Virus record (IMG/VR): IMGVR_UViG_3300023184_003735
Location: 32,001-96,000 of that record
From: a virus
Length of the DNA: 64,000 bases
Direction: 5' to 3' (one strand)
Both the position numbers and the translations under genes were made by a program. The notes under the pieces were generated by a model that was not told the DNA's origin, searched no databases, and worked only from the letters and a program-made list of their open reading frames with translations. Positions 49,327-63,903 of the stretch are shown in pieces. Position 1 is the first letter of the stretch. The number at the start of each line of letters is the position of its first letter.

Positions 49327-49355
49327 ATTATAGCAAATTGGGATTTATTGGTCAA
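49327..49355 (-). promoter_or_regulatory. Sigma70 promoter
   Basis: TTGACC-N17-TATAAT. Confidence 0.75.
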
Positions 49356-49585
49356 CCAAATGCTTTGGCTAGTCCAGATGCCCCAATGCACAAGGCCACA
49401 ATGTTCACCATCAACTGTGGCCGATTTGCAACACGTATGGTCCAGGCCATAAACAAAATTGTGCCTATAAAAAAGGCAAGAATATTGTAAGGATAAGCCT
49501 CAGGGCCCACGGCGTTGAGACTGTGGCCTGCAATGATAAACACTGCTCCGGTCCACTGTAGTATTTCATTGATTTCTAATTTCAT
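49352..49585 (-). CDS. Small membrane protein (leaderless)
   Basis: Three hydrophobic helices; TTGACC-N17-TATAAT at 49620-49592 with ATG 6 nt downstream. Confidence 0.65.
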   Translation of the reverse strand: MKLEINEILQWTGAVFIIAGHSLNAVGPEAYPYNILAFFIGTILFMAWTIRVANRPQLMVNIVALCIGASGLAKAFG

Positions 49586-49623
49586 GTTATTATTATAACC
49601 GATCTTGAATATTTGGTCAAGTC

Positions 49624-53828: not shown

Positions 53829-54299
53829 TTACGCTGCCAAACTCTTGAATCTATCTGCGGCGTAACTGGCTGCAAATGCTTGGGGTTTGACAAAAGGTAT
53901 CACATTACATGTACCTTTGATGTATCCAATGGCTTGTGAAATTACACAACTTGATCCGTGCATTTCGTTGGGATTGATGTCCAGGTGAACCTCAACTTCT
54001 CGCCCTTCTAGTACCTCTGCCAGTTTAAGGTACAATTCGCTCACTTTGTATACTTCGGTCATCAAACGTAAACTAGGGCGACTGGCCTTCTGGTCCCAGT
54101 CGCGTTCACGTTGTACTTCGCCAAACAGTTTGCAACCGTTGTTGCCATTGATATGGACCACAATAGCCAGCACATAATCGGCATGCCAGGCACCTTCTAC
54201 TTTGACACGTTCACTATCGCAACCAAGATAGATTTTTGTTTCAGGTGTTTGGGCCCGGATAAATTCTGCCACTTGGTCAATGTCTAGTTTTTTCATCAT
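53829..54299 (-). CDS. RNase H-like YkuK/DUF458-family protein
   Basis: IYLGCDS, EVHLDIN, ASYAAD motifs. Confidence 0.75.
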   Translation of the reverse strand: MMKKLDIDQVAEFIRAQTPETKIYLGCDSERVKVEGAWHADYVLAIVVHINGNNGCKLFGEVQRERDWDQKASRPSLRLMTEVYKVSELYLKLAEVLEGREVEVHLDINPNEMHGSSCVISQAIGYIKGTCNVIPFVKPQAFAASYAADRFKSLAA

Positions 54300-54339
54300 T
54301 TGCCTTTTATTTAACTCTATAAACATTACGGTTTTATTA

Positions 54340-54416
54340 TGGTGCCCCAAGAGAGACTCGAACTCTCAAAATTTGGCTTTTAAGACCAACACGTATACCA
54401 ATTCCGTCATCGGGGC
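54340..54416 (-). tRNA. tRNA-Leu(TAA), short variable loop
   Basis: Loop CTTAAAA; 77 nt. Confidence 0.88.
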
Positions 54417-54828: not shown

Positions 54829-54852
54829 AGGGGCACAGAGAATCGAACTCTA
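54825..54852 (-). pseudogene. Orphan tRNA 3' fragment (T-arm, acceptor strand, CCA)
   Basis: TAGAG-TTCGATT-CTCTG-TGCCCCT-ACCA, starting at the HNH stop codon; no 5' half. Confidence 0.8.
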
Positions 54853-55431
54853 CTTCTCTAACAATCTTTTTGCTCTGGAATAGTTGTTACCCTTTGCCGC
54901 AATTCCTGCTTTGAGCAAACCTTGTCTTATACTACTGGTTTCTTTAAGACATTGTAGTAAAAATTCATCGGTTACTACATTTACGCCGTTTTTAGAAGGT
55001 TTGTTTCGTCCCCTCCATGTATCAGTGATACTATGGCAGTTTGGGCACAGTCCTTCTAAATTTTCTCTAGTATTGTTTTGATTGTTGCCATCTTTGTGCT
55101 CAAGTTCAAGTGGAATTTTGAACCCCTGCCACTCACTTACGCCACATTTATTACAGCAATGATTTTGTTCTTCAAATACTCTGCGTCGTCTGTTTTCCAT
55201 ACCTAATTCAGAAAATGGAGTAGCATTATATTTGTCTAGCCACGCCTGTTTGATATTTGCTCTCCATTGATCTACATCAGAGATAAGTCCACGTGTACTA
55301 GGCTTTCCCTTTAATGCAATACTTTTTTTACGTTTACTTTCATCGGAAAACTCCCGACTATTAGCACATGTTCTAGAACAAAATGTTCCAGATTTGCTAT
55401 GTTCTGTTTTACACTTAGGACATTGTTTCAT
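54850..55431 (-). mobile_element. Free-standing HNH homing endonuclease inside the tRNA array
   Basis: CPKC..FCSRTC, CNKC, LELEHKDGN...N...LCPNCH; AT-rich. Confidence 0.85.
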
Positions 55432-55491
55432 ATCGAACCCTATTAAATTATAGAAGTATTTAGTAGAGTTCCATATAAAACAACTCATAAA

Positions 55492-57016: not shown

Positions 57017-57210
57017 ATAATTTCAACTGACTTGGCGTCTTGATCACGTATGGCCCACTCAGTGCTACCCACACGTATGTGTAGACAACAGGCCCCGCGT
57101 CGTAACACAGTCACAGTTCGTGTGGCAACAATGCCCATTTGCTGTAGTCGTTCGTTAGTGACGCCGGCTATCACAGCCTGGTCATGCGTTTTTAAGTCGT
57201 TCAATGTCAT
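57010..57210 (-). CDS. feoA: FeoA-like SH3-domain protein
   Basis: MTLNDLK...ERLQQMGI...VTVLRR...IRVGSTEWAIR..DAKSVEI pattern. Confidence 0.7.
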   Translation of the reverse strand: MTLNDLKTHDQAVIAGVTNERLQQMGIVATRTVTVLRRGACCLHIRVGSTEWAIRDQDAKSVEIIL

Positions 57211-57216
57211 ATGCTT

Positions 57217-57306
57217 TGGCGGAGCGTTAGGGAGTCGAACCCTATCAACCACTTTCATGATTGTACGGATTAGCAATCCGCTGCCTTACCATCCGGCCCA
57301 CGCTCC
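57217..57306 (-). tRNA. tRNA-Ser(GCT)
   Basis: Loop TTGCTAA; long variable arm. Confidence 0.93.
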
Positions 57307-57314
57307 TCTATAGT

Positions 57315-57343
57315 ATTATATAGTCAACGTGTGACCATGTCAA
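57315..57343 (-). promoter_or_regulatory. Internal sigma70 promoter in the tRNA array
   Basis: Perfect TTGACA-N17-TATAAT. Confidence 0.75.
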
Positions 57344-57351
57344 CAACAATT

Positions 57352-57436
57352 TGGTGGAGATGACTTGAGTCGAACAAGTAGTGCCAGGGGCGGCTGATTT
57401 ACAGTCAGCTGGGGTTACCAATTTTCCTACATCTCC
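57352..57436 (-). tRNA. tRNA-Tyr(GTA)
   Basis: GCTGA-CTGTAAA-TCAGC; variable arm. Confidence 0.92.
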
Positions 57437-57440
57437 AATT

Positions 57441-57515
57441 TGGTGGACCGTCCCGGGTTCGAACCGGGGACTGAGGCTTGCAAAGCCACTGTGTTCCCAA
57501 CTATACCAACAGCCC
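57441..57515 (-). tRNA. tRNA-Ala(TGC)
   Basis: G3:U70 pair; loop TTTGCAA. Confidence 0.92.
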
Positions 57516-57521
57516 AAATTT

Positions 57522-57599
57522 TTGGCGACCCCGAAAGGATTTGAACCTCTGACATTTGGTTTTGGAGACCAACGTTCTGCCGGACTGAACTACGGAGCC
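57522..57599 (-). tRNA. tRNA-Trp(CCA)
   Basis: TTGGT-CTCCAAA-ACCAA. Confidence 0.92.
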
Positions 57600-57620
57600 A
57601 TAACGCACTCTTGCGAATGC

Positions 57621-57703
57621 GTGTATCGAAGCACACCAAGGTCACAAACCCCGACCGTTCATGGCCGCACGAACCTTTTCGGTACTGGTATGCTTCGATA
57701 CAC
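57621..57703 (-). ncRNA. Long-stem RNA element B
   Basis: 18-bp stem (57686-57703 with 57621-57638); its one mismatch is a U-G wobble on the minus strand. Confidence 0.6.
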
Positions 57704-57797
57704 TCGGATTTTTTTATGTACAAGAACATAAGCCATCCCCGAGGCCGCCCATTTGCAGTTTTGAGTGTTGCAGGCTCGCGTTGCCTTGCACTAAATG

Positions 57798-57865
57798 AAA
57801 AACCCTGGAGTTTTAATTCCAGGGTCCTTGGTGTGAATACGGTTGTATACTATGTTAGGACCCTG
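57798..57865 (-). promoter_or_regulatory. Attenuator 1: terminator/antiterminator
   Basis: Terminator ACCCTGGA-N8-TCCAGGGT-TTTT; CAGGGTCCT at the end of the leader ORF pairs (9 bp) with AGGACCCTG, the terminator's 5' arm. Confidence 0.75.
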
Positions 57866-57968
57866 TGTCTCCTGGAATGCTTGCTGTCAAGCGACCATAG
57901 ACATGTGACCAGGCGGATGTCTGATTAAACATTGTCTTGGGTAGCGATAAACAGAGTTGCGTTTTCAT
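57855..57968 (-). CDS. Putative leader peptide 1 (37 aa)
   Basis: MKTQLCLSLPKTMFNQTSAWSHVYGRLTASIPGDTGS*; ATG 7 nt after the TATAAT of TTGACA-N17-TATAAT (58004-57976). Confidence 0.65.
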   Translation of the reverse strand: MKTQLCLSLPKTMFNQTSAWSHVYGRLTASIPGDTGS

Positions 57969-58048
57969 AGTATCAATTATAGTTTATTTATCATCTCGTG
58001 TCAACCACGACATGCTCTTTCTGTGTTATTTATACAACACAGTTGAAT

Positions 58049-58122
58049 TGGATGCGGGTGACAGATTCGAACTGCCGATGCACCTGGCTTATGAGACCGG
58101 TGTGGTGGCCACCCTACCCGCG
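58049..58122 (-). tRNA. Initiator-like tRNA-Met(CAT), atypical
   Basis: C1:A72 mismatch, loop CTCATAA, reduced D-arm; own promoter TTGACA-N17-TATAAT at 58167-58139. Confidence 0.75.
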
Positions 58123-58163
58123 ATAATATTATTTATAAATTATAAAACAAATAAAATTATTTG

Positions 58164-59018
58164 TCAACCAGGATACAAATTTTCTTCACTGTCAAATTTG
58201 TAGTCGTCTGGCAATACCACCTTGGTTGAGTGGTCAATCAACTCGGCTAACTGGGCGGTGGGTACTCCGGTGACTCTAATTTGTCTTCTCCTAGAGGTGC
58301 AAATTGGAACACCATGCAAAAAATAATCACTATGCAAGTATACCGGATCGTTTGTGGTAAACACTTTTTTGTTGTCATCTCCATCCAGTGCCCACCATAG
58401 CGGAACACCGCCATCACTGATGTTTAATGCAACGATCACATGACCTTGCTGATATAATCCATTTTCGGCACCAGCATTTTTAGCGAAAGGCAAACCAGCA
58501 TCAGCAGAATATCTTGCATCACGATGTATGTTACTGAAACTTCCTGGTGCCAAACTCACACAGTGTATGTTCACAATTCGTTTAAATGGCAATTGCTTCA
58601 AAATAAATTCTACAATTTTTAAATGTTTAAATTCGGGTTTTATTTTATAAAGTCTGTTCAAATGATGATTGCGCATGCAAGACCCACCTTCTCCAGCATT
58701 ACGTTTTACAAAATCGCTATCTGATTCAATAGTGATAAGTTCTAGCAGTTGATTCATTTCAAAGCCAGAAATCCCACGAATTTCTTCAGTGTATTGTCCA
58801 GAATTACCAATTTCTATCGACACGTTCATTTTATCATACAAGATTGGATCTATCATTCCCCATGCCCGATTGAGATTACGAGTACCATCTAAAGTTTGCC
58901 GGCGTGTACATATAGAGTGCGAAGTTGGTAAAATATATTGGTCATACTCTTCGACAAAGAGTTTGTGGTCAAAGTCGAGATTGAGTTTTGCGTAAGCAAG
59001 ATTTGCAAATTGGTGCAT
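58164..59018 (-). CDS. Oxygenase-like hypothetical protein
   Basis: NIHRD (HxD) ... FLHGV ... RRQIRV. Confidence 0.5.
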   Translation of the reverse strand: MHQFANLAYAKLNLDFDHKLFVEEYDQYILPTSHSICTRRQTLDGTRNLNRAWGMIDPILYDKMNVSIEIGNSGQYTEEIRGISGFEMNQLLELITIESDSDFVKRNAGEGGSCMRNHHLNRLYKIKPEFKHLKIVEFILKQLPFKRIVNIHCVSLAPGSFSNIHRDARYSADAGLPFAKNAGAENGLYQQGHVIVALNISDGGVPLWWALDGDDNKKVFTTNDPVYLHSDYFLHGVPICTSRRRQIRVTGVPTAQLAELIDHSTKVVLPDDYKFDSEENLYPG

Positions 59019-59095
59019 GTTTTTAGTAGTAGATATTTTGAAATCCAACAAGTGGAGTTTCTATTGAAAGTACTATATTTAGTTCAATTGATAAT

Positions 59096-60547
59096 TCATT
59101 GATCATGTTTTTCTAATTCGGGCACAAAATCTTTAAGTTTTACTCCACGACTATTATCAAGTACACGATTAAATTCAAAAAATTTTTTTAAACTTTCAGT
59201 ATCGGGTAGTGAATTTTTTACTTGAATTTCAATTCTATCAATTGTGGTTTTAAAATACTGATCTTGCTGATATCTCTTTAGTTGTTTGATCAACTGTAAA
59301 TTGTCAAGAATTGTTTGTGGCTCGGGATGATTCCAAGGCGATTGATCAGGTTCTACGCCAGCAACAAGATTCATGGAACAATGAACTTTTAAATATTTGT
59401 CATCTAAGAAATTATAAAGATCAAACAGGTGTGCAATATTATAGATACTGATCACAGTATTGAAGTTTGCAACACGACCCATATCATAAAGTGTAGCAAC
59501 ATTGCGACACCAGTTGTCCCATTTGATAGGCCATCTAATGTAGCGATTTAATTGATCAAATCCGTCTACACTCACACTAAATTCTAGATTAGGAAATTTG
59601 TTACAGTAGTCTAACATCTGAGTTGATAAGACTGATGCATTGGTGCTGACTTCAAATGCAATATCATTGCGTTGCTTTTCAATGCATTGGTCAAGGAATT
59701 GAAAAAATTCCTTGTTTATAGTGGGCTCTCCTCCGGCTATTTGTAGACATCGCACATGGTCAATGTCAACGTGATCAAAAATACCTTGTTTTTTGTGATT
59801 AGTATAGTTTGATAGACCAATTGCTCTATATTCTCTAGCAATGAGATGCGAATTGCCAGGAACACACATTCGACACATTGCATTACAACGATTGTCTAAT
59901 ACCGCATATACATACAATGGTGAAGGTACAGTTGTTACATCTTGTTGCGTTTTAATATTAAACTTGCTACTCCAAGTTTGAGTAAAATTTTGTCTTTGAC
60001 TGGTCATTCCTAGATCTTCTTTTTGCCAACAATGACTGCATTCATCAACACGTTTTCCCTGCAACATACTCTGTTTTACGGACTGGCTCCATGATGCATC
60101 AAATTTATCAGATGGTCTTGATTGCATGTGACAGCAATGACTTTTTTGCTTTTGTGTTTGGTATAGCCCAACGAATGGTACAATGCAAAAGGCTGGATTA
60201 GTATGTAATTCTTTTAGAATCCATGGTACCAAGTCGGGATTTTGATATTCCACTACAAAAGATTTTTGTAAGTCAAATATCATGCTGATTGTTATTGCAA
60301 AATCTTCAGCATTATTGTAAGATTCTTGATCTTGATCTAACAATATAATTTTGCATGATTTACCATACAACAGGGTCTGCAACTCAGCCGGTGTTATATC
60401 GTATATACTGGTATGATAGACACCAGAAGATAAGTTTGTATTTCGATCCAATACTAATTTATATTCAAGATCGTGTTGTTGTGCAATTTTTTGTGTAATT
60501 TTGTGTGCTATTTTATTGCCTGTGCCCACACATACAATTAGATTCAT
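59096..60547 (-). CDS. Radical SAM enzyme
   Basis: CIVPF..HCC..CSHC, CNAMCRMC, AGGEP; AT-rich. Confidence 0.88.
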   Translation of the reverse strand: MNLIVCVGTGNKIAHKITQKIAQQHDLEYKLVLDRNTNLSSGVYHTSIYDITPAELQTLLYGKSCKIILLDQDQESYNNAEDFAITISMIFDLQKSFVVEYQNPDLVPWILKELHTNPAFCIVPFVGLYQTQKQKSHCCHMQSRPSDKFDASWSQSVKQSMLQGKRVDECSHCWQKEDLGMTSQRQNFTQTWSSKFNIKTQQDVTTVPSPLYVYAVLDNRCNAMCRMCVPGNSHLIAREYRAIGLSNYTNHKKQGIFDHVDIDHVRCLQIAGGEPTINKEFFQFLDQCIEKQRNDIAFEVSTNASVLSTQMLDYCNKFPNLEFSVSVDGFDQLNRYIRWPIKWDNWCRNVATLYDMGRVANFNTVISIYNIAHLFDLYNFLDDKYLKVHCSMNLVAGVEPDQSPWNHPEPQTILDNLQLIKQLKRYQQDQYFKTTIDRIEIQVKNSLPDTESLKKFFEFNRVLDNSRGVKLKDFVPELEKHDQ

Positions 60548-60559
60548 TATAAATTTTGC

Positions 60560-60950
60560 TCGGTTAAATGCTCTGACATCCCTCGGCGGTAATTATAGAG
60601 CATTGAGTGATAGTCTTTCCACTACACACCGCAACTTGTACTCCTTCCACCCGCTTCCCGACAGGGACCGTTCTCGTATTGCTAACGCCGGTTAGGTTAG
60701 ACCGCATCTTTCGATGTGAGACTTATATTCCAAATCTCAGAACCACCCGTGCTTGTCACAGCACTTCTCATCGTCTGGGTCAGACTATCCAGTGACGCTG
60801 GAACGTTAGGGAAGGGCTGGCCCCATAACGGGATACCACTTAGCCTTACTTATCTGTCGCGTTGGAGTAAGGCACCCTAATTAGGAGAGAAGCCACGGTT
60901 GCAGGACCTAGTGCCTTTTGCAAGGGAAGTATCCAGGCGGTGTGGCTTCA
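60560..60950 (-). ncRNA. Large structured ncRNA region (unassigned)
   Basis: About 390 nt, GC-richer than its flanks, no credible ORF; helices GAAGCCAC/GTGGCTTC, GCCTTACT/AGTAAGGC, GTGC/GCAC, TGAGA/TCTCA, AATGCTCT/AGAGCATT. Confidence 0.6.
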
Positions 60951-60956
60951 AAAACT

Positions 60957-61031
60957 TGGCGGTCCGAACGGGAATCGAACCCGTCTCCTCGCAGTGACAG
61001 TGCGAAATACTAACCGATATACTATCGAACC
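60957..61031 (-). tRNA. tRNA-Asp(GTC)
   Basis: TCGCA-CTGTCAC-TGCGA; G73. Confidence 0.93.
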
Positions 61032-61191
61032 AAATGTTATAGTCAAGCACCGAGAATGCCAATTTATGCGTCCTCCGCTAAGAGTGCAAAAGCCGAATGC
61101 AGTTATATTAGGATCAGTCGCCGGCCGCTGTGACCCGAATAGTGTTGGCGTCCCATACACGATACCTTATCGATGCTTGACTATAACATTT
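61032..61191 (-). ncRNA. Long-stem RNA element C
   Basis: 22-bp terminal stem (61170-61191 with 61032-61053), one U-G pair. Confidence 0.65.
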
Positions 61192-61315
61192 ACCATATAG
61201 AAGCACTCTCGCCAGCAGGCCTAGGAGGGGACTTGCACCACTGAAACTTTCGCATCTGCAGATACTAGGCTTCTTCTCCTGCTTTGACTTATGCCAAGAA
61301 TACTTCTATATGGTA
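61191..61315 (-). ncRNA. Long-stem RNA element D
   Basis: 19-bp terminal stem (61297-61315 with 61191-61209), two U-G pairs. Confidence 0.65.
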
Positions 61316-61386
61316 CTCCGTGGGGGAATCGAACCCCTCCTTACCCGCGTGAAAGGCGAGTGTCCTAACCGATAGACGAACGGAGC
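61311..61386 (-). tRNA. tRNA-Glu(TTC)
   Basis: Loop CTTTCAC; cloverleaf with CCA. Confidence 0.92.
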
Positions 61387-61394
61387 ATGTAGTT

Positions 61395-61602
61395 TTACAT
61401 TGAGGAATCATTGTGGATCTTGTTCTGCTTGGCTTGCGAGGCCAAGTCACCACGATCATTACATCCAGACGATCCGCCGCTTTTCCGGATCACTTCGCAA
61501 GGAAGGAGAGCCTATTTCATGACTGATAGCAGATGGGCACCCGCCGATGCCGGATTCATCTCTACCAATGCCACTAACGGGTCTGGTAACCTCTTTGTAT
61601 AT
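61395..61602 (-). ncRNA. Structured ncRNA, about 200 nt (unassigned)
   Basis: Terminal TACAAAGAGG/CCTCAATGTA; internal CCAGAC/GTCTGG, GATCCG/CGGATC, CTTGGC/GCCAAG. Confidence 0.55.
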
Positions 61603-61656
61603 TTTAAAGATCTGTTGCAACCAGTATCGATCTACTTTGTTGCTTTGTTAAGTTCT

Positions 61657-61685
61657 ATTGTAGCAGAGTTCCATTTATTGGTCTA
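61657..61685 (-). promoter_or_regulatory. Sigma70-like promoter just downstream of terminator 2
   Basis: TAGACC-N17-TACAAT; resembles the 49355 promoter (GACCAATAAAT...TGCTA). Confidence 0.6.
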
Positions 61686-61695
61686 GCACTAAATG

Positions 61696-61759
61696 AAAAA
61701 CCCTCCAAATTGGAGGGCCTTTAGTGATGTAGTACAAAATACTTACATCCAAAGACCCT
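61696..61759 (-). promoter_or_regulatory. Attenuator 2: terminator/antiterminator
   Basis: Terminator CCCTCCA-ATT-TGGAGGG-TTTTT; AGGGTCTTTGG in the leader pairs with CTAAAGGCCCT, plus GATGTA/TACATC. Confidence 0.75.
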
Positions 61760-61820
61760 GCAGGCAATCGCGCTCGTGTTCTGAACGGAAAGTGTTAGCG
61801 ATTGCGTTTATTGTCATCAT
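61743..61820 (-). CDS. Putative leader peptide 2 (25 aa)
   Basis: MMTINAIANTFRSEHERDCLQGLWM*; ATG 6 nt after the TACAAT of TTGACA-N17-TACAAT (61855-61827). Confidence 0.65.
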   Translation of the reverse strand: MMTINAIANTFRSEHERDCLQGLWM

Positions 61821-61851
61821 AGTGTTATTGTATACGATTATTTATACTTTG

Positions 61852-63012
61852 TCAACGAAAATAATTTTGGATTTTGCCAGATCTGCTGATGTCGTTTGTG
61901 ACACAATGAATGCCGCAATCCCAGAAATATTTGTGACGGAACGGCACCACATGCACTTCGATGCCATGTCGTGCGCAGGCCTTCTCTACCTGGTCGTTGT
62001 GTGTGCTGACCACAATGTTCTTGGGATCCACTATCAGGATGTTGACGTCGAACACAGTTTCACTAACCTGTCCCACCCACTCGTCAAAGTAGTGATCCAC
62101 CATGTGAACCAAGTTGTTGTCCTGTTCAAACCCGGGCATGAACCAACGTCCCTTGTTGCGTTTCATGGAGTACTCAAACTCGCGCATGTGTGCGTAGTTG
62201 CTGGGTGGCAGGTACACCACTTCCCAGTCTGGGAAGGTGTCAGCATAGGTGGGAACATCATTGAGGCTGATGATCAGACCCGGCGTCACTGGGCAATACA
62301 CCGCATCACCGTGCCCACCTGAATTGACCACTCTATTTTGAGTTGTAGGAAACAACTGATTCACTTGATCTAGTATGCCTTGTTTGTCATCATGATAGGT
62401 TTGTGTGGCAAAGTACAAGTCCTCACCTATGCGACTCACAAAACAGCCGTTGATGAAATCAAGATCAGTTGACACAATCTCATTGCCCTGCGCCTTGATG
62501 TCCGCAAACACATGAGAATAAAACCCCAACTTGGCGTCTAGATGCGCTTGATCAGTCTGATTGAATCTAGCAAACTTGGCCTGTACCTCTTCGGCAAACT
62601 CAGGATAGTCTGCATAAAAATCCGCAGGACGTATGTGGTCGTTCCACCAAGGCTGTTTGTTCTGTCGGTAAAACACTGACCATGCATGACTGGCATTGGG
62701 AATTCGGGGAACCCAAAATCTGTCCTGAATCATCAAAAAGTAATCTCTTGGTGCTGTGGGCGGTTGCACCCACTTGTTATCTATGTACAGTTGGGACAAG
62801 TCCGTGGGAAACTCCGGACGCATCACACGCACACCAAATCGATCTGTCAACAGTCGTATGAGTCGTTGATAGTCTTCTTCGGTCTCTTGTGCAAGAGTTT
62901 CAAAGCGTTCTCGGGTGGCAGAGTTCTTGATCCAACTGTAGAACTCTGGGGGATAAGTGCGACCCACTAATGAGACTTGTAGTGGATCCCAGTGTTGATA
63001 TACTGAATACAT
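61852..63012 (-). CDS. Amidinotransferase, second paralog
   Basis: HWDPLQVSLVG, APRD, GHGD, DVNIL, CGIHCVTND. Confidence 0.8.
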   Translation of the reverse strand: MYSVYQHWDPLQVSLVGRTYPPEFYSWIKNSATRERFETLAQETEEDYQRLIRLLTDRFGVRVMRPEFPTDLSQLYIDNKWVQPPTAPRDYFLMIQDRFWVPRIPNASHAWSVFYRQNKQPWWNDHIRPADFYADYPEFAEEVQAKFARFNQTDQAHLDAKLGFYSHVFADIKAQGNEIVSTDLDFINGCFVSRIGEDLYFATQTYHDDKQGILDQVNQLFPTTQNRVVNSGGHGDAVYCPVTPGLIISLNDVPTYADTFPDWEVVYLPPSNYAHMREFEYSMKRNKGRWFMPGFEQDNNLVHMVDHYFDEWVGQVSETVFDVNILIVDPKNIVVSTHNDQVEKACARHGIEVHVVPFRHKYFWDCGIHCVTNDISRSGKIQNYFR

Positions 63013-63300: not shown

Positions 63301-63457
63301 GGTGATTTCTGTTACGAGGTATTTCCTACCCTAGGCCGCTCACGCTGCCAAAGAATAAACGCTATCGTTTGCATTTACTAGTTTTGCTTGATTTACGGTC
63401 ATCGCCTACCGAGCGCCATTACCCCTACTCTTTGCCCTGTCGAAACTATGCAGGCCC
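63300..63457 (-). ncRNA. ssrA: Permuted tmRNA, coding piece (tag ANDSVYSLAA at 63372-63340)
   Basis: 5' GGGCCTG...TTCGAC; tag frame GCA AAC GAT AGC GTT TAT TCT TTG GCA GCG TGA. Confidence 0.92.
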
Positions 63458-63458
63458 A

Positions 63459-63830
63459 TCATAAAGAAACTTGTTTGAGGTATTGCTCACCTTCGCCAGT
63501 AACATACCAATACTCATTGTCATTGACAATGTATCCTAAATCTGCCAAACTATCCATAGCATTGTCAAAGGCTTGGGTGCGTGACTCATCTTCTACATAG
63601 TCTAATCCTGACATGATGGCAGTATAGATTCCTTTTAGTATTAGAATTTTACCTAATCCTTTGCTTTGAAAGGTTGGATCTAACTCTACTAAACTTCTTC
63701 CACTATCTGCATCGTATTGAAACGTTCCTGCATACTGCCCGTCAACATTCATTTCAACACCAATAGTATTACTACCTTTTGTTGTGTTAAAACTTAGTTT
63801 TGAACCGGCAATATCAGTAATACGCATCAA
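63459..63830 (-). CDS. GNAT-like protein in the tmRNA intervening segment
   Basis: AAGGA RBS directly after CCA; VELDPTFQSKGLGKILI resembles acetyl-CoA-binding motif A. Confidence 0.6.
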   Translation of the reverse strand: MMRITDIAGSKLSFNTTKGSNTIGVEMNVDGQYAGTFQYDADSGRSLVELDPTFQSKGLGKILILKGIYTAIMSGLDYVEDESRTQAFDNAMDSLADLGYIVNDNEYWYVTGEGEQYLKQVSL

Positions 63831-63839
63831 ACTTCCTTA

Positions 63840-63903
63840 TGGTGGACCTGGGGGGATTCGCACCCCCGTCCAGAACACTTTTCTTGATAACAGTTTACGC
63901 TGT
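63840..63903 (-). ncRNA. ssrA: Permuted tmRNA, acceptor piece
   Basis: GGAC-GGGGG-TGCGAAT-CCCCC-CAGGTCC-ACCA; pairs with GGGCCTG to give G3:U70; promoter TCGACA-N17-TATAAT upstream; 5' end approximate. Confidence 0.92.

Follow-up and report, generated by a model that had tools for sequence, protein, structure and literature searches.

How the tRNA arrays carried by many large phages are regulated, and why they are retained, are open questions. We address the first of them at a 64,000-nucleotide stretch of viral DNA (the window), bases 32001-96000 of the 124,183-base IMG/VR virus record IMGVR_UViG_3300023184_003735 (completeness 36% according to CheckV), in which 23 tRNA genes predicted by ARAGORN and two further Rfam tRNA matches lie on the minus strand at 53.5-63.9 kb. 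Direct reading of the sequence reveals two cassettes, C1 (61855-61686) and C2 (58004-57788), each standing in front of tRNA and non-coding RNA (ncRNA) genes and each composed of a promoter, a very short open reading frame (ORF) and an intrinsic terminator. What are these cassettes for? They are real and conserved, and comparison with relatives together with folding indicates that they are most likely translation-sensing transcription attenuators. All coordinates are window positions, and both cassettes and the tRNA and ncRNA genes are on the minus strand.

Two leader cassettes precede phage tRNA genes

Each cassette begins with a sigma-70-type promoter, near consensus in C1 (TTGACA-N17-TACAAT, 61827-61855; 11 of 12 consensus positions) and matching all 12 positions in C2 (TTGACA-N17-TATAAT, 57976-58004). 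An ATG lies 6 nt past the -10 element in C1 (61820) and 7 nt past it in C2 (57968), and opens a leaderless mini-ORF of 25 codons plus TAA in C1 (61743-61820; MMTINAIANTFRSEHERDCLQGLWM) and of 37 codons plus TAA in C2 (57855-57968; MKTQLCLSLPKTMFNQTSAWSHVYGRLTASIPGDTGS). Neither cassette has a Shine-Dalgarno sequence or a purine-rich tract between the -10 element and the ATG; transcription is predicted to start at or next to the ATG, and the mini-ORFs are presumably translated.

The end of each mini-ORF is complementary to the terminator that follows. In C1, strand X (CAGGGTCTTTGG, 61749-61760), the 5' half of the putative antiterminator, lies in the final codons, and its partner Y (CTAAAGGCCCT, 61714-61724) overlaps the 5' arm of the terminator; together they form 11 pairs, two of them G-U. 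The terminator, CCCTCCA-ATT-TGGAGGG plus a T-run (61696-61717), consists of a hairpin at 61717-61701 and a T-run at 61700-61696, and in six relatives its stem is CCCTGC/GCAGGG, with both arms changed. The corresponding strands in C2 are X2 (CAGGGTCCT, 57857-57865), which overlaps the stop codon, and Y (AGGACCCTG, 57820-57828), which again overlaps the terminator 5' arm, and they form nine pairs. The C2 terminator, CCCTGGA-ATTAAAAC-TCCAGGG plus a T-run (57798-57824), has its hairpin at 57824-57803 and its T-run at 57802-57798. An additional C2 strand, X1 (ATTCCAGGAG, 57869-57878), nearly invariant among relatives, pairs in the minimum free energy (MFE) fold with the terminator 3' arm or, in an alternative register, with the 5' arm. 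A simple terminator scan listed neither the C1 nor the C2 hairpin; both hairpins are G+C-rich and were established by sequence reading and folding, and both terminators are predicted to be functional.

Both cassettes close with an identical 19-mer (61686-61704 and 57788-57806). It has exactly two matches in the window, a number reached in 0 of 100 shuffles, and no further copy was found elsewhere in the 124-kb record. A preliminary description of this DNA had proposed this anatomy, namely a promoter, a nearby ATG without a Shine-Dalgarno sequence, a mini-ORF, an X:Y pairing, a terminator and a shared 19-mer, and our reading of the sequence located every one of these parts where it had been placed.

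Cassette geometry is conserved in uncultured phages

A homologue scan with the exact 19-mer recovered 8 IMG/VR loci and 56 metagenome loci, mainly from lake metagenomes. The 67 matches, including the two window copies, represent 49 distinct flank variants, from which a chance match in unrelated coding-looking sequence (L063) and a locus that was cut off (L018) were excluded. The distinct leaders comprise 38 of C2 type and 7 of C1 type, with L015 and L066 as further types. By construction, this set is selected for the exact terminator 3' arm and tail; 45 distinct promoter-bearing variants form the basis of the geometry counts.

All 45 variants have a promoter spacer of 17 nt, and the ATG lies 6 nt from the -10 element in 7, 7 nt in 31 and 10 nt in 7 of them. 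ORF length ranges from 25 to 44 codons, the differences being whole codons, and the stop codon is held 23-33 nt ahead of the terminator 5' arm (CCCT) in all 45 variants. X falls in the last codons of the ORF in all cassettes. The preliminary description had looked for a fixed position of the stop relative to the CAGGGTC segment, but this distance varies from 1 to 23 nt; the spacing that is kept is the one between the stop and the terminator arm. The reading frame is likewise maintained: all 44 leaders examined keep it open from the ATG through X, among them six of the seven C1 variants, and the seventh, L030, has it open as well. Of the other two frames, one is open in 0 and the second in 10 of the 44, and shuffled ORF bodies remain open in 16% of cases.

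We also searched for C1 by synteny with the upstream gene, which encodes a 386-amino-acid (aa) protein. Among the 79 loci examined, C1 was kept beside this gene only in L068, the closest, so the C1 set stayed at seven sequences; L089 and L146 carry a different cassette type at the same place. With 45 variants and several cassette types, the element is widespread in uncultured freshwater jumbo phages, and the architecture claimed at the outset, a short ORF at the 5' end with an antiterminator strand in its last codons and a mutually exclusive terminator, is retained in all 45 and recurs elsewhere.

Antiterminator pairing is maintained and recurs with different helices

The pairing between X and Y was examined in an alignment of 37 C2 sequences (33 distinct rows). 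Of the 264 cells in its eight core pairs, 254 hold a standard pair. Pair 29-84 is intact throughout, as CG (23 rows), UA (8) or UG (2); pair 30-83 is U-A in one row, and pairs 24-89 and 23-90 alternate between Watson-Crick and wobble. None of 500 shuffles attained the observed covariation score or the observed number of double-changed cells, and 75.9% of cells are paired, compared with 53% and 51% when the partner strand is slid by one column. In the variants with longer ORFs the C2 helix is extended, CAGGGTCnTTTGAA pairing with TTCAAAnGACCCTG. Among the seven C1 sequences, 87% of cells are paired, compared with 28-55% for slid partners. The X:Y duplex energy is -17.3 kcal/mol for C1 (p 0.018) and -18.8 kcal/mol for C2 (p 0.0005).

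All retrieved loci were then searched for a promoter closely followed by an ATG, with a short ORF, a G-rich stem and a T-run in succession. Further cassettes with other tails and other helices were found in L146, L089, L035/L011, L055 and L067, and in each of them the end of the ORF is complementary to the terminator 5' arm. Across eight cassettes, the duplex p values were 0.018, 0.0005, 0.027, 0.022, 0/2000, 0.001, 0.0035 and 0.06 (seven of eight at 0.027 or below, the eighth at 0.06), based on 2000 shuffles each that keep mononucleotide content only and on a set in which two cassette pairs are mutually related. This recurrence with different helices is the strongest comparative point that the sequences offer. 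The preliminary description had said of C1 and C2 that their peptides are unrelated and their helices differ while staying paired, and both statements are correct.

Folding agrees with the attenuation model of that description. Truncation ahead of the terminator 3' arm gives transcripts that adopt the antiterminator in C1 and C2 of the window, in the six other C1 variants and in five of the six extra cassettes; the cut L035 transcript does not, though its X:Y duplex energy is favourable. In C1 the antiterminator is a long hairpin around the stop codon, and in C2 it is the MFE structure of the full leader (-47.7 kcal/mol). When pairing is barred within the footprint of a ribosome at the stop codon, both C1 and C2 adopt the terminator fold.

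Genes behind the cassettes

C2 is followed by a unit (57352-57787) that contains a conserved ncRNA of ~190 nt and then tRNA-Trp(CCA), tRNA-Ala(TGC) and tRNA-Tyr(GTA). A consensus promoter (57315-57343; 12 of 12 positions) occupies the gap between tRNA-Tyr and tRNA-Ser(GCT) and marks the limit of the genes that would rely solely on C2 read-through. Neither sequence reading nor a promoter scan found a sigma-70-like site between the C2 terminator and this promoter, so tRNA-Trp, tRNA-Ala and tRNA-Tyr need read-through or a promoter of another kind. If the cassettes are attenuators, C2 probably controls at least the ncRNA and these three tRNAs. The unit behind C1 (60957-61656) consists of an ncRNA, tRNA-Glu(TTC), a second ncRNA and tRNA-Asp(GTC). 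Directly past the C1 terminator lies a promoter-like site, TAGACC-N17-TACAAT with TG before the -10 element (61657-61685; 9 of 12 positions), which is kept in seven of seven C1 variants; in L011 and L035 the hexamers and spacing are kept and the spacer is changed. The preliminary description had named both of these promoter sites as possible bypasses, and both exist.

The order of genes is similar in relatives. Among the 31 C2-type variants with at least 300 nt of downstream sequence, tRNA-Trp(CCA) or tRNA-Ala(TGC) comes first in 29, 146-395 nt past the 19-mer; the exceptions are L034, with no tRNA in its 339 nt, and L042, whose first tRNA lies at 1242 nt. All seven C1-type variants have tRNA-Glu(TTC) 295-336 nt downstream. 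The order of tRNA-Trp and tRNA-Ala behind C2-type cassettes flips among relatives (L006, L007, L011, L013 and others), which suggests frequent rearrangement within the tRNA array. The proposal of a switch dedicated to tRNA arrays fits the tRNA and ncRNA genes behind C1 and C2 but not the cassettes of L146, L089 and L067, where a protein-coding gene precedes the next tRNAs; 'tRNA switch' is therefore too narrow a name for the device. The protein gene is short in L146 and L089, and the tRNAs follow within ~200-310 nt.

Conserved non-coding stretches of ~190-400 nt separate the terminators from the tRNAs (57600-57787, 61387-61656, 61032-61310 and 60558-60956). The first of these holds a 13-bp stem, GTGTATCGAAGCA/TGCTTCGATACAC, and apart from tRNA none of the four matched an Rfam family at E values up to 5.

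RNA data were available as contigs only, from four runs labelled metatranscriptomic (5-8% of sampled words), three of which were flagged as probably DNA. Contig cover falls on the leader, ncRNA and tRNA parts, and the protein-coding region 58184-60479 is nearly bare (two bins at depth 2-3, from a single contig each, the other bins at or near zero). An 805-nt contig from run X3 covers 57472-57992, across the C2 terminator. Contigs from X1 and X4 stop at 57798, the final T of the T-run; transcript ends are beyond what contigs can show, and the conserved stretch of ~38 nt at this place is a likely assembly break. We base no claim on any of these RNA data.

A proposed three-strand attenuator that responds to translation

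We propose, with moderate confidence, that the cassettes are three-strand ribosome-dependent transcription attenuators in which termination is favoured when the mini-ORF is translated, and read-through occurs when the ribosome lags, stalls or is missing. Host RNA polymerase would initiate at the strong sigma-70 promoter, and the transcript, beginning at or next to the AUG, would be a leaderless mRNA. As the RNA emerges, X in the last codons of the mini-ORF would pair with Y in the terminator 5' arm, so that the antiterminator hairpin encloses the stop codon. A ribosome loaded at the 5' AUG and keeping pace with the polymerase would unwind or cover X and end at the stop, 23-33 nt before the arm; with X occupied, Y would be free for the third strand, Z, and transcription would halt at the T-run. 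At the stop codon, the ribosome would leave a tether between its leading edge and Y that is too short for X to reach Y, wherever X lies. A ribosome at this position would also stand too far from the terminator to interfere with it, and translation is therefore expected to favour termination; pyrBI attenuation follows the opposite logic, with translation acting against termination. Without a ribosome, or with one that lags or has stalled upstream, X:Y would persist and the polymerase would read through into the ncRNA and tRNA genes, so that slow translation would raise the yield of phage tRNA and ncRNA. Transcripts from an upstream promoter at 58167, in which the C2 AUG would be internal and without a Shine-Dalgarno sequence, would be expected to read through.

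Leaderless translation is plausible here because a 77-aa gene elsewhere in the window (49352-49620, minus strand), with its ATG 6 nt past TATAAT, has a like promoter-ATG geometry; its product matches positions 13-77 of the 78 of Pfam DUF6552 with 29.4 bits (cut-off 27). The same geometry, again with an ATG 6 nt past TATAAT, is present at a 111-aa gene of locus L148 (G000, 105100-105625), whose GIY-YIG match is below threshold (17 bits; cut-off 22.6).

Several points weigh against this model. The choice of fold by ribosome position, like the transcription start, translation and termination, is deduced from sequence. Independent covariation events in C2 are few because the UA rows belong mostly to one clade; of the 22 C1 pairs, none is changed on both sides among the seven sequences. 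The C2 terminator stem is invariant and uninformative because the homologues were selected for the exact 3' arm. The MFE of full-length C1 is the terminator in three of seven variants, including that of the window, and the antiterminator in four. In the variants with longer ORFs, the X core ends 16-23 nt ahead of the stop, so a terminating ribosome would not cover X directly, and the steric tether argument for these variants is deductive. We found no convincing anti-antiterminator (1:2) or pause helix in the C2 ORF; the sole candidate is a 5-bp CCUGG/CCAGG helix whose changes are one-sided only, none being double-sided. Finally, the promoter-like site at 61685-61657 could feed tRNA-Glu and tRNA-Asp independently and make C1 marginal; lying directly past the terminator, it means that C1 may only add a regulated input to a constitutive one.

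Alternative explanations

A first alternative starts from PeSLs, composite terminator/promoter motifs of T4-like phages that have been implicated in insertions and deletions (PMC4122927). PeSLs resemble the cassettes: they are conserved regulatory motifs, repeated in plastic parts of the genome, that combine a stem-loop with an adjacent early promoter (PMC4122927). The cassettes might be mobile or recombining elements of this kind, conserved for the shuffling of modules in the tRNA region, an account that we rate as a tentative possibility and that can coexist with attenuation. C1 and C2 share the 19-mer, an ATAAATA motif in the promoter spacer and CAGGGTC despite their different ORFs; similar cassettes stand at different places in relatives, with the synteny to the 386-aa gene retained in L068 only; the order of tRNA-Trp and tRNA-Ala flips; and the tRNA region contains, between tRNA blocks, an HNH endonuclease gene (54850-55488, minus strand; PHROG 14736, E 1.6e-25) that may be a homing element. 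The C1 terminator followed by its promoter-like site also reproduces the PeSL order, whereas no such site lies behind C2, and the 19-mer has two copies in the 124-kb record. PeSLs as described differ from the cassettes: no mini-ORF separates promoter and stem-loop, there is no antiterminator or other alternative pairing, and the proposed role is recombination, not attenuation. Shuffling also leaves the X:Y complementarity and the stop-to-terminator spacing unexplained. A PeSL-type role may be a non-exclusive reason for the shared 19-mer.

Alternatively, the cassettes could be ordinary small early genes, each with a strong promoter, a leaderless gene for a peptide product and a terminator that ends the unit, X:Y being non-regulatory structure at the 3' end of the mRNA. 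Phage early regions are rich in small genes, the ORF is open in every leader, five C2 residues are invariant (W22, S32, I33, G35 and G38) and C1 has a promoter-like site of its own behind it, all of which speak for such genes. We nevertheless consider them improbable, as the peptide is weakly constrained in these comparisons. Nucleotide diversity in the leaders is nearly equal at the three codon positions (10.5/10.3/11.1), with dN/dS ~0.55, whereas the neighbouring 386-aa enzyme gene, compared across 13 related loci, gives 77/47/209 and a dN/dS of 0.06, the latter with unsaturated dS in just 8 of 78 pairs. The most conserved codons are those of the pairing strands, and changes keep the pairing over the residues, as in C1, where LQG is replaced by HWG or PWG and X:Y stays intact. 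Each cassette type that we examined has an X:Y pairing that overlaps the terminator arm, and no sigma-70-like site separates the C2 terminator from tRNA-Trp, tRNA-Ala and tRNA-Tyr, which must be reached by read-through or have a promoter of another kind. With the frame kept and the peptide weakly constrained, the act of translation seems to matter more than its product. A role of the peptides as precursors of a ribosomally synthesized, post-translationally modified peptide for the neighbouring radical SAM gene was considered and rejected, given their weak constraint and the varying upstream context of the cassettes among relatives.

A riboregulator in which a trans-acting phage or host protein, small RNA or tRNA chooses between X:Y and the terminator, the mini-ORF being untranslated, would resemble T-box leaders or antitermination that depends on a protein, and is very doubtful. 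In its favour, the alternative structures are real and conserved, all the selected homologues carry the same, unexplained tail CATTTAGTGC past the T-run, and leaderless translation is inefficient in some bacteria, but no T-box or other leader family of Rfam matched at gathering score, and such a regulator would leave unexplained the open frame from a 5'-terminal ATG through X, the whole-codon length changes and the stop held at its distance from the terminator arm.

Codon content and the sensed signal

If the cassettes are attenuators, what would slow the ribosome? Runs of a regulatory codon are absent from the leaders. The C2 leader contains one Trp codon, and C1 has two Glu codons and one Asp codon, about the expected frequency. 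A further idea, that the leader samples the whole tRNA pool through codon diversity, was rejected as a conserved property: the 37 codons of the window C2 include 32 distinct ones (P 0.002) and specify 19 amino acids (P 0.044), but this is a feature of the window clade only, and leaders of the L011 clade use 14-16 amino acids (P 0.65-0.93).

Each cassette might instead be a cognate feedback sensor for the charged tRNAs encoded right behind it, a view to which we give little credence. The leader codons would match the downstream tRNAs (Trp/Ala/Tyr for C2; Glu/Asp for C1), and a shortage of just these charged tRNAs, such as one caused when a host anticodon nuclease cleaves them, would hold up the ribosome before X and turn on the replacement tRNA genes. 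Across eight cassette types, the amino acids of the first two or three downstream tRNAs are present in the cassette's own leader in 22 of 23 cases, a presence of 0.96 compared with 0.73 for mismatched pairings (permutation P ~0.012, with cassettes chosen post hoc). A downstream tRNA-Tyr accompanies a Tyr codon four codons past the invariant Trp in 24 of 24 variants, but on the tree this corresponds to two independent changes only (sign test p 0.5). The Trp codon itself lies within the CCUGG that is able to pair with X1. These hints are post hoc, phylogenetically confounded or weak. If cognate sensing were true, it would amount to a virus-borne, self-regulating tRNA supply.

Genome context and neighbouring genes

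The tRNA genes belong to a larger set. A permuted (two-piece) tmRNA (63331-63902, minus strand; Rfam RF04321, 101.6 bits) follows a promoter of its own, TCGACA-N17-TATAAT (63942-63914, minus strand), and together with the approximately 25 tRNA genes it constitutes a translation-support block. The radical SAM gene (59096-60547, minus strand; 483 aa, assigned by Pfam) and a gene for a 295-aa protein without a family match (58164-59051, minus strand) stand between the two tRNA/ncRNA blocks, where the G+C content is lower (0.365 for 58001-60000). An RNase H-like protein is encoded at 53829-54350 (minus strand; Pfam PF04308).

A small hairpin with the loop TATAAATA is present at 58020-58040 (minus strand), directly upstream of the C2 promoter, and is kept in relatives. 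The sequence ATAAATA also occurs in the cassette promoter spacers, and we take motifs of this type, at both places, to resemble the T4 late-promoter motif.

A 663-aa structural protein has matches in jumbo myoviruses (Atu_ph07, Phosso and the PA5oct group), where identity is 38-46% across 32-42% of the protein; by sequence these are distant relationships only. A blastn search of 57200-62100 against 50,697 phage records for cultured relatives returned matches at the tRNA genes only.

Discussion

Our results argue that the two cassettes of this phage, and their relatives in other uncultured phages, probably act as leader-peptide attenuators in front of tRNA and ncRNA genes. If so, a translation-sensing switch would link the output of phage tRNA and ncRNA to the translation state of the host. 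A full-text literature search, whose coverage lay outside subscription journals, returned no description of attenuation control of phage tRNA genes.

In Corynebacterium glutamicum, where 33% of mRNAs are leaderless, small leader peptides of trpE, leuA, ilvB and aroF are thought to act in transcription attenuation (PMC3890552). These leaders differ from the cassettes in serving the control of bacterial amino-acid biosynthesis. The amino-acid leader peptides of C. glutamicum are reportedly themselves leaderless.

A second group consists of antibiotic-responsive attenuators at resistance genes, in which a terminator is disabled when the ribosome slows or stalls on a small ORF ahead of it. Like the proposed switch, they sense the general state of translation and not one amino acid. 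They differ in controlling bacterial resistance genes and in having upstream ORFs that are usually led by a Shine-Dalgarno sequence; in the literature listings available, none has phage or tRNA targets.

The closest comparison is with the attenuators of amino-acid operons (trp, his, leu, thr, pheA and pheST). The cassettes belong to none of the Rfam leader families: the best scores of C1 were 20.8 bits for Phe_leader (gathering 55, E 1.4) and 17.5 bits for Trp_leader (gathering 41, E 1.9), and the T-box covariance model had no match at E values up to 5 in 57150-58250 or 60500-61900. They differ from these attenuators in having no runs of a single regulatory codon, a leaderless mRNA, and phage tRNA and ncRNA genes as targets. 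They also use three strands where the amino-acid operons use four, and without a convincing 1:2 helix an untranslated leader should read through, not terminate. What the cassettes have in common with the operon attenuators is the structural plan of a leader-peptide attenuator, the regulatory codons set aside: a short ORF near the promoter, an intrinsic terminator ahead of the genes under control, an antiterminator and a terminator with one strand in common, and an ORF end that overlaps a pairing strand, so that the position of the ribosome would select the fold. This suggests a way in which leader-peptide attenuation might operate with a leaderless mRNA and three strands, with read-through as the default when translation is absent.

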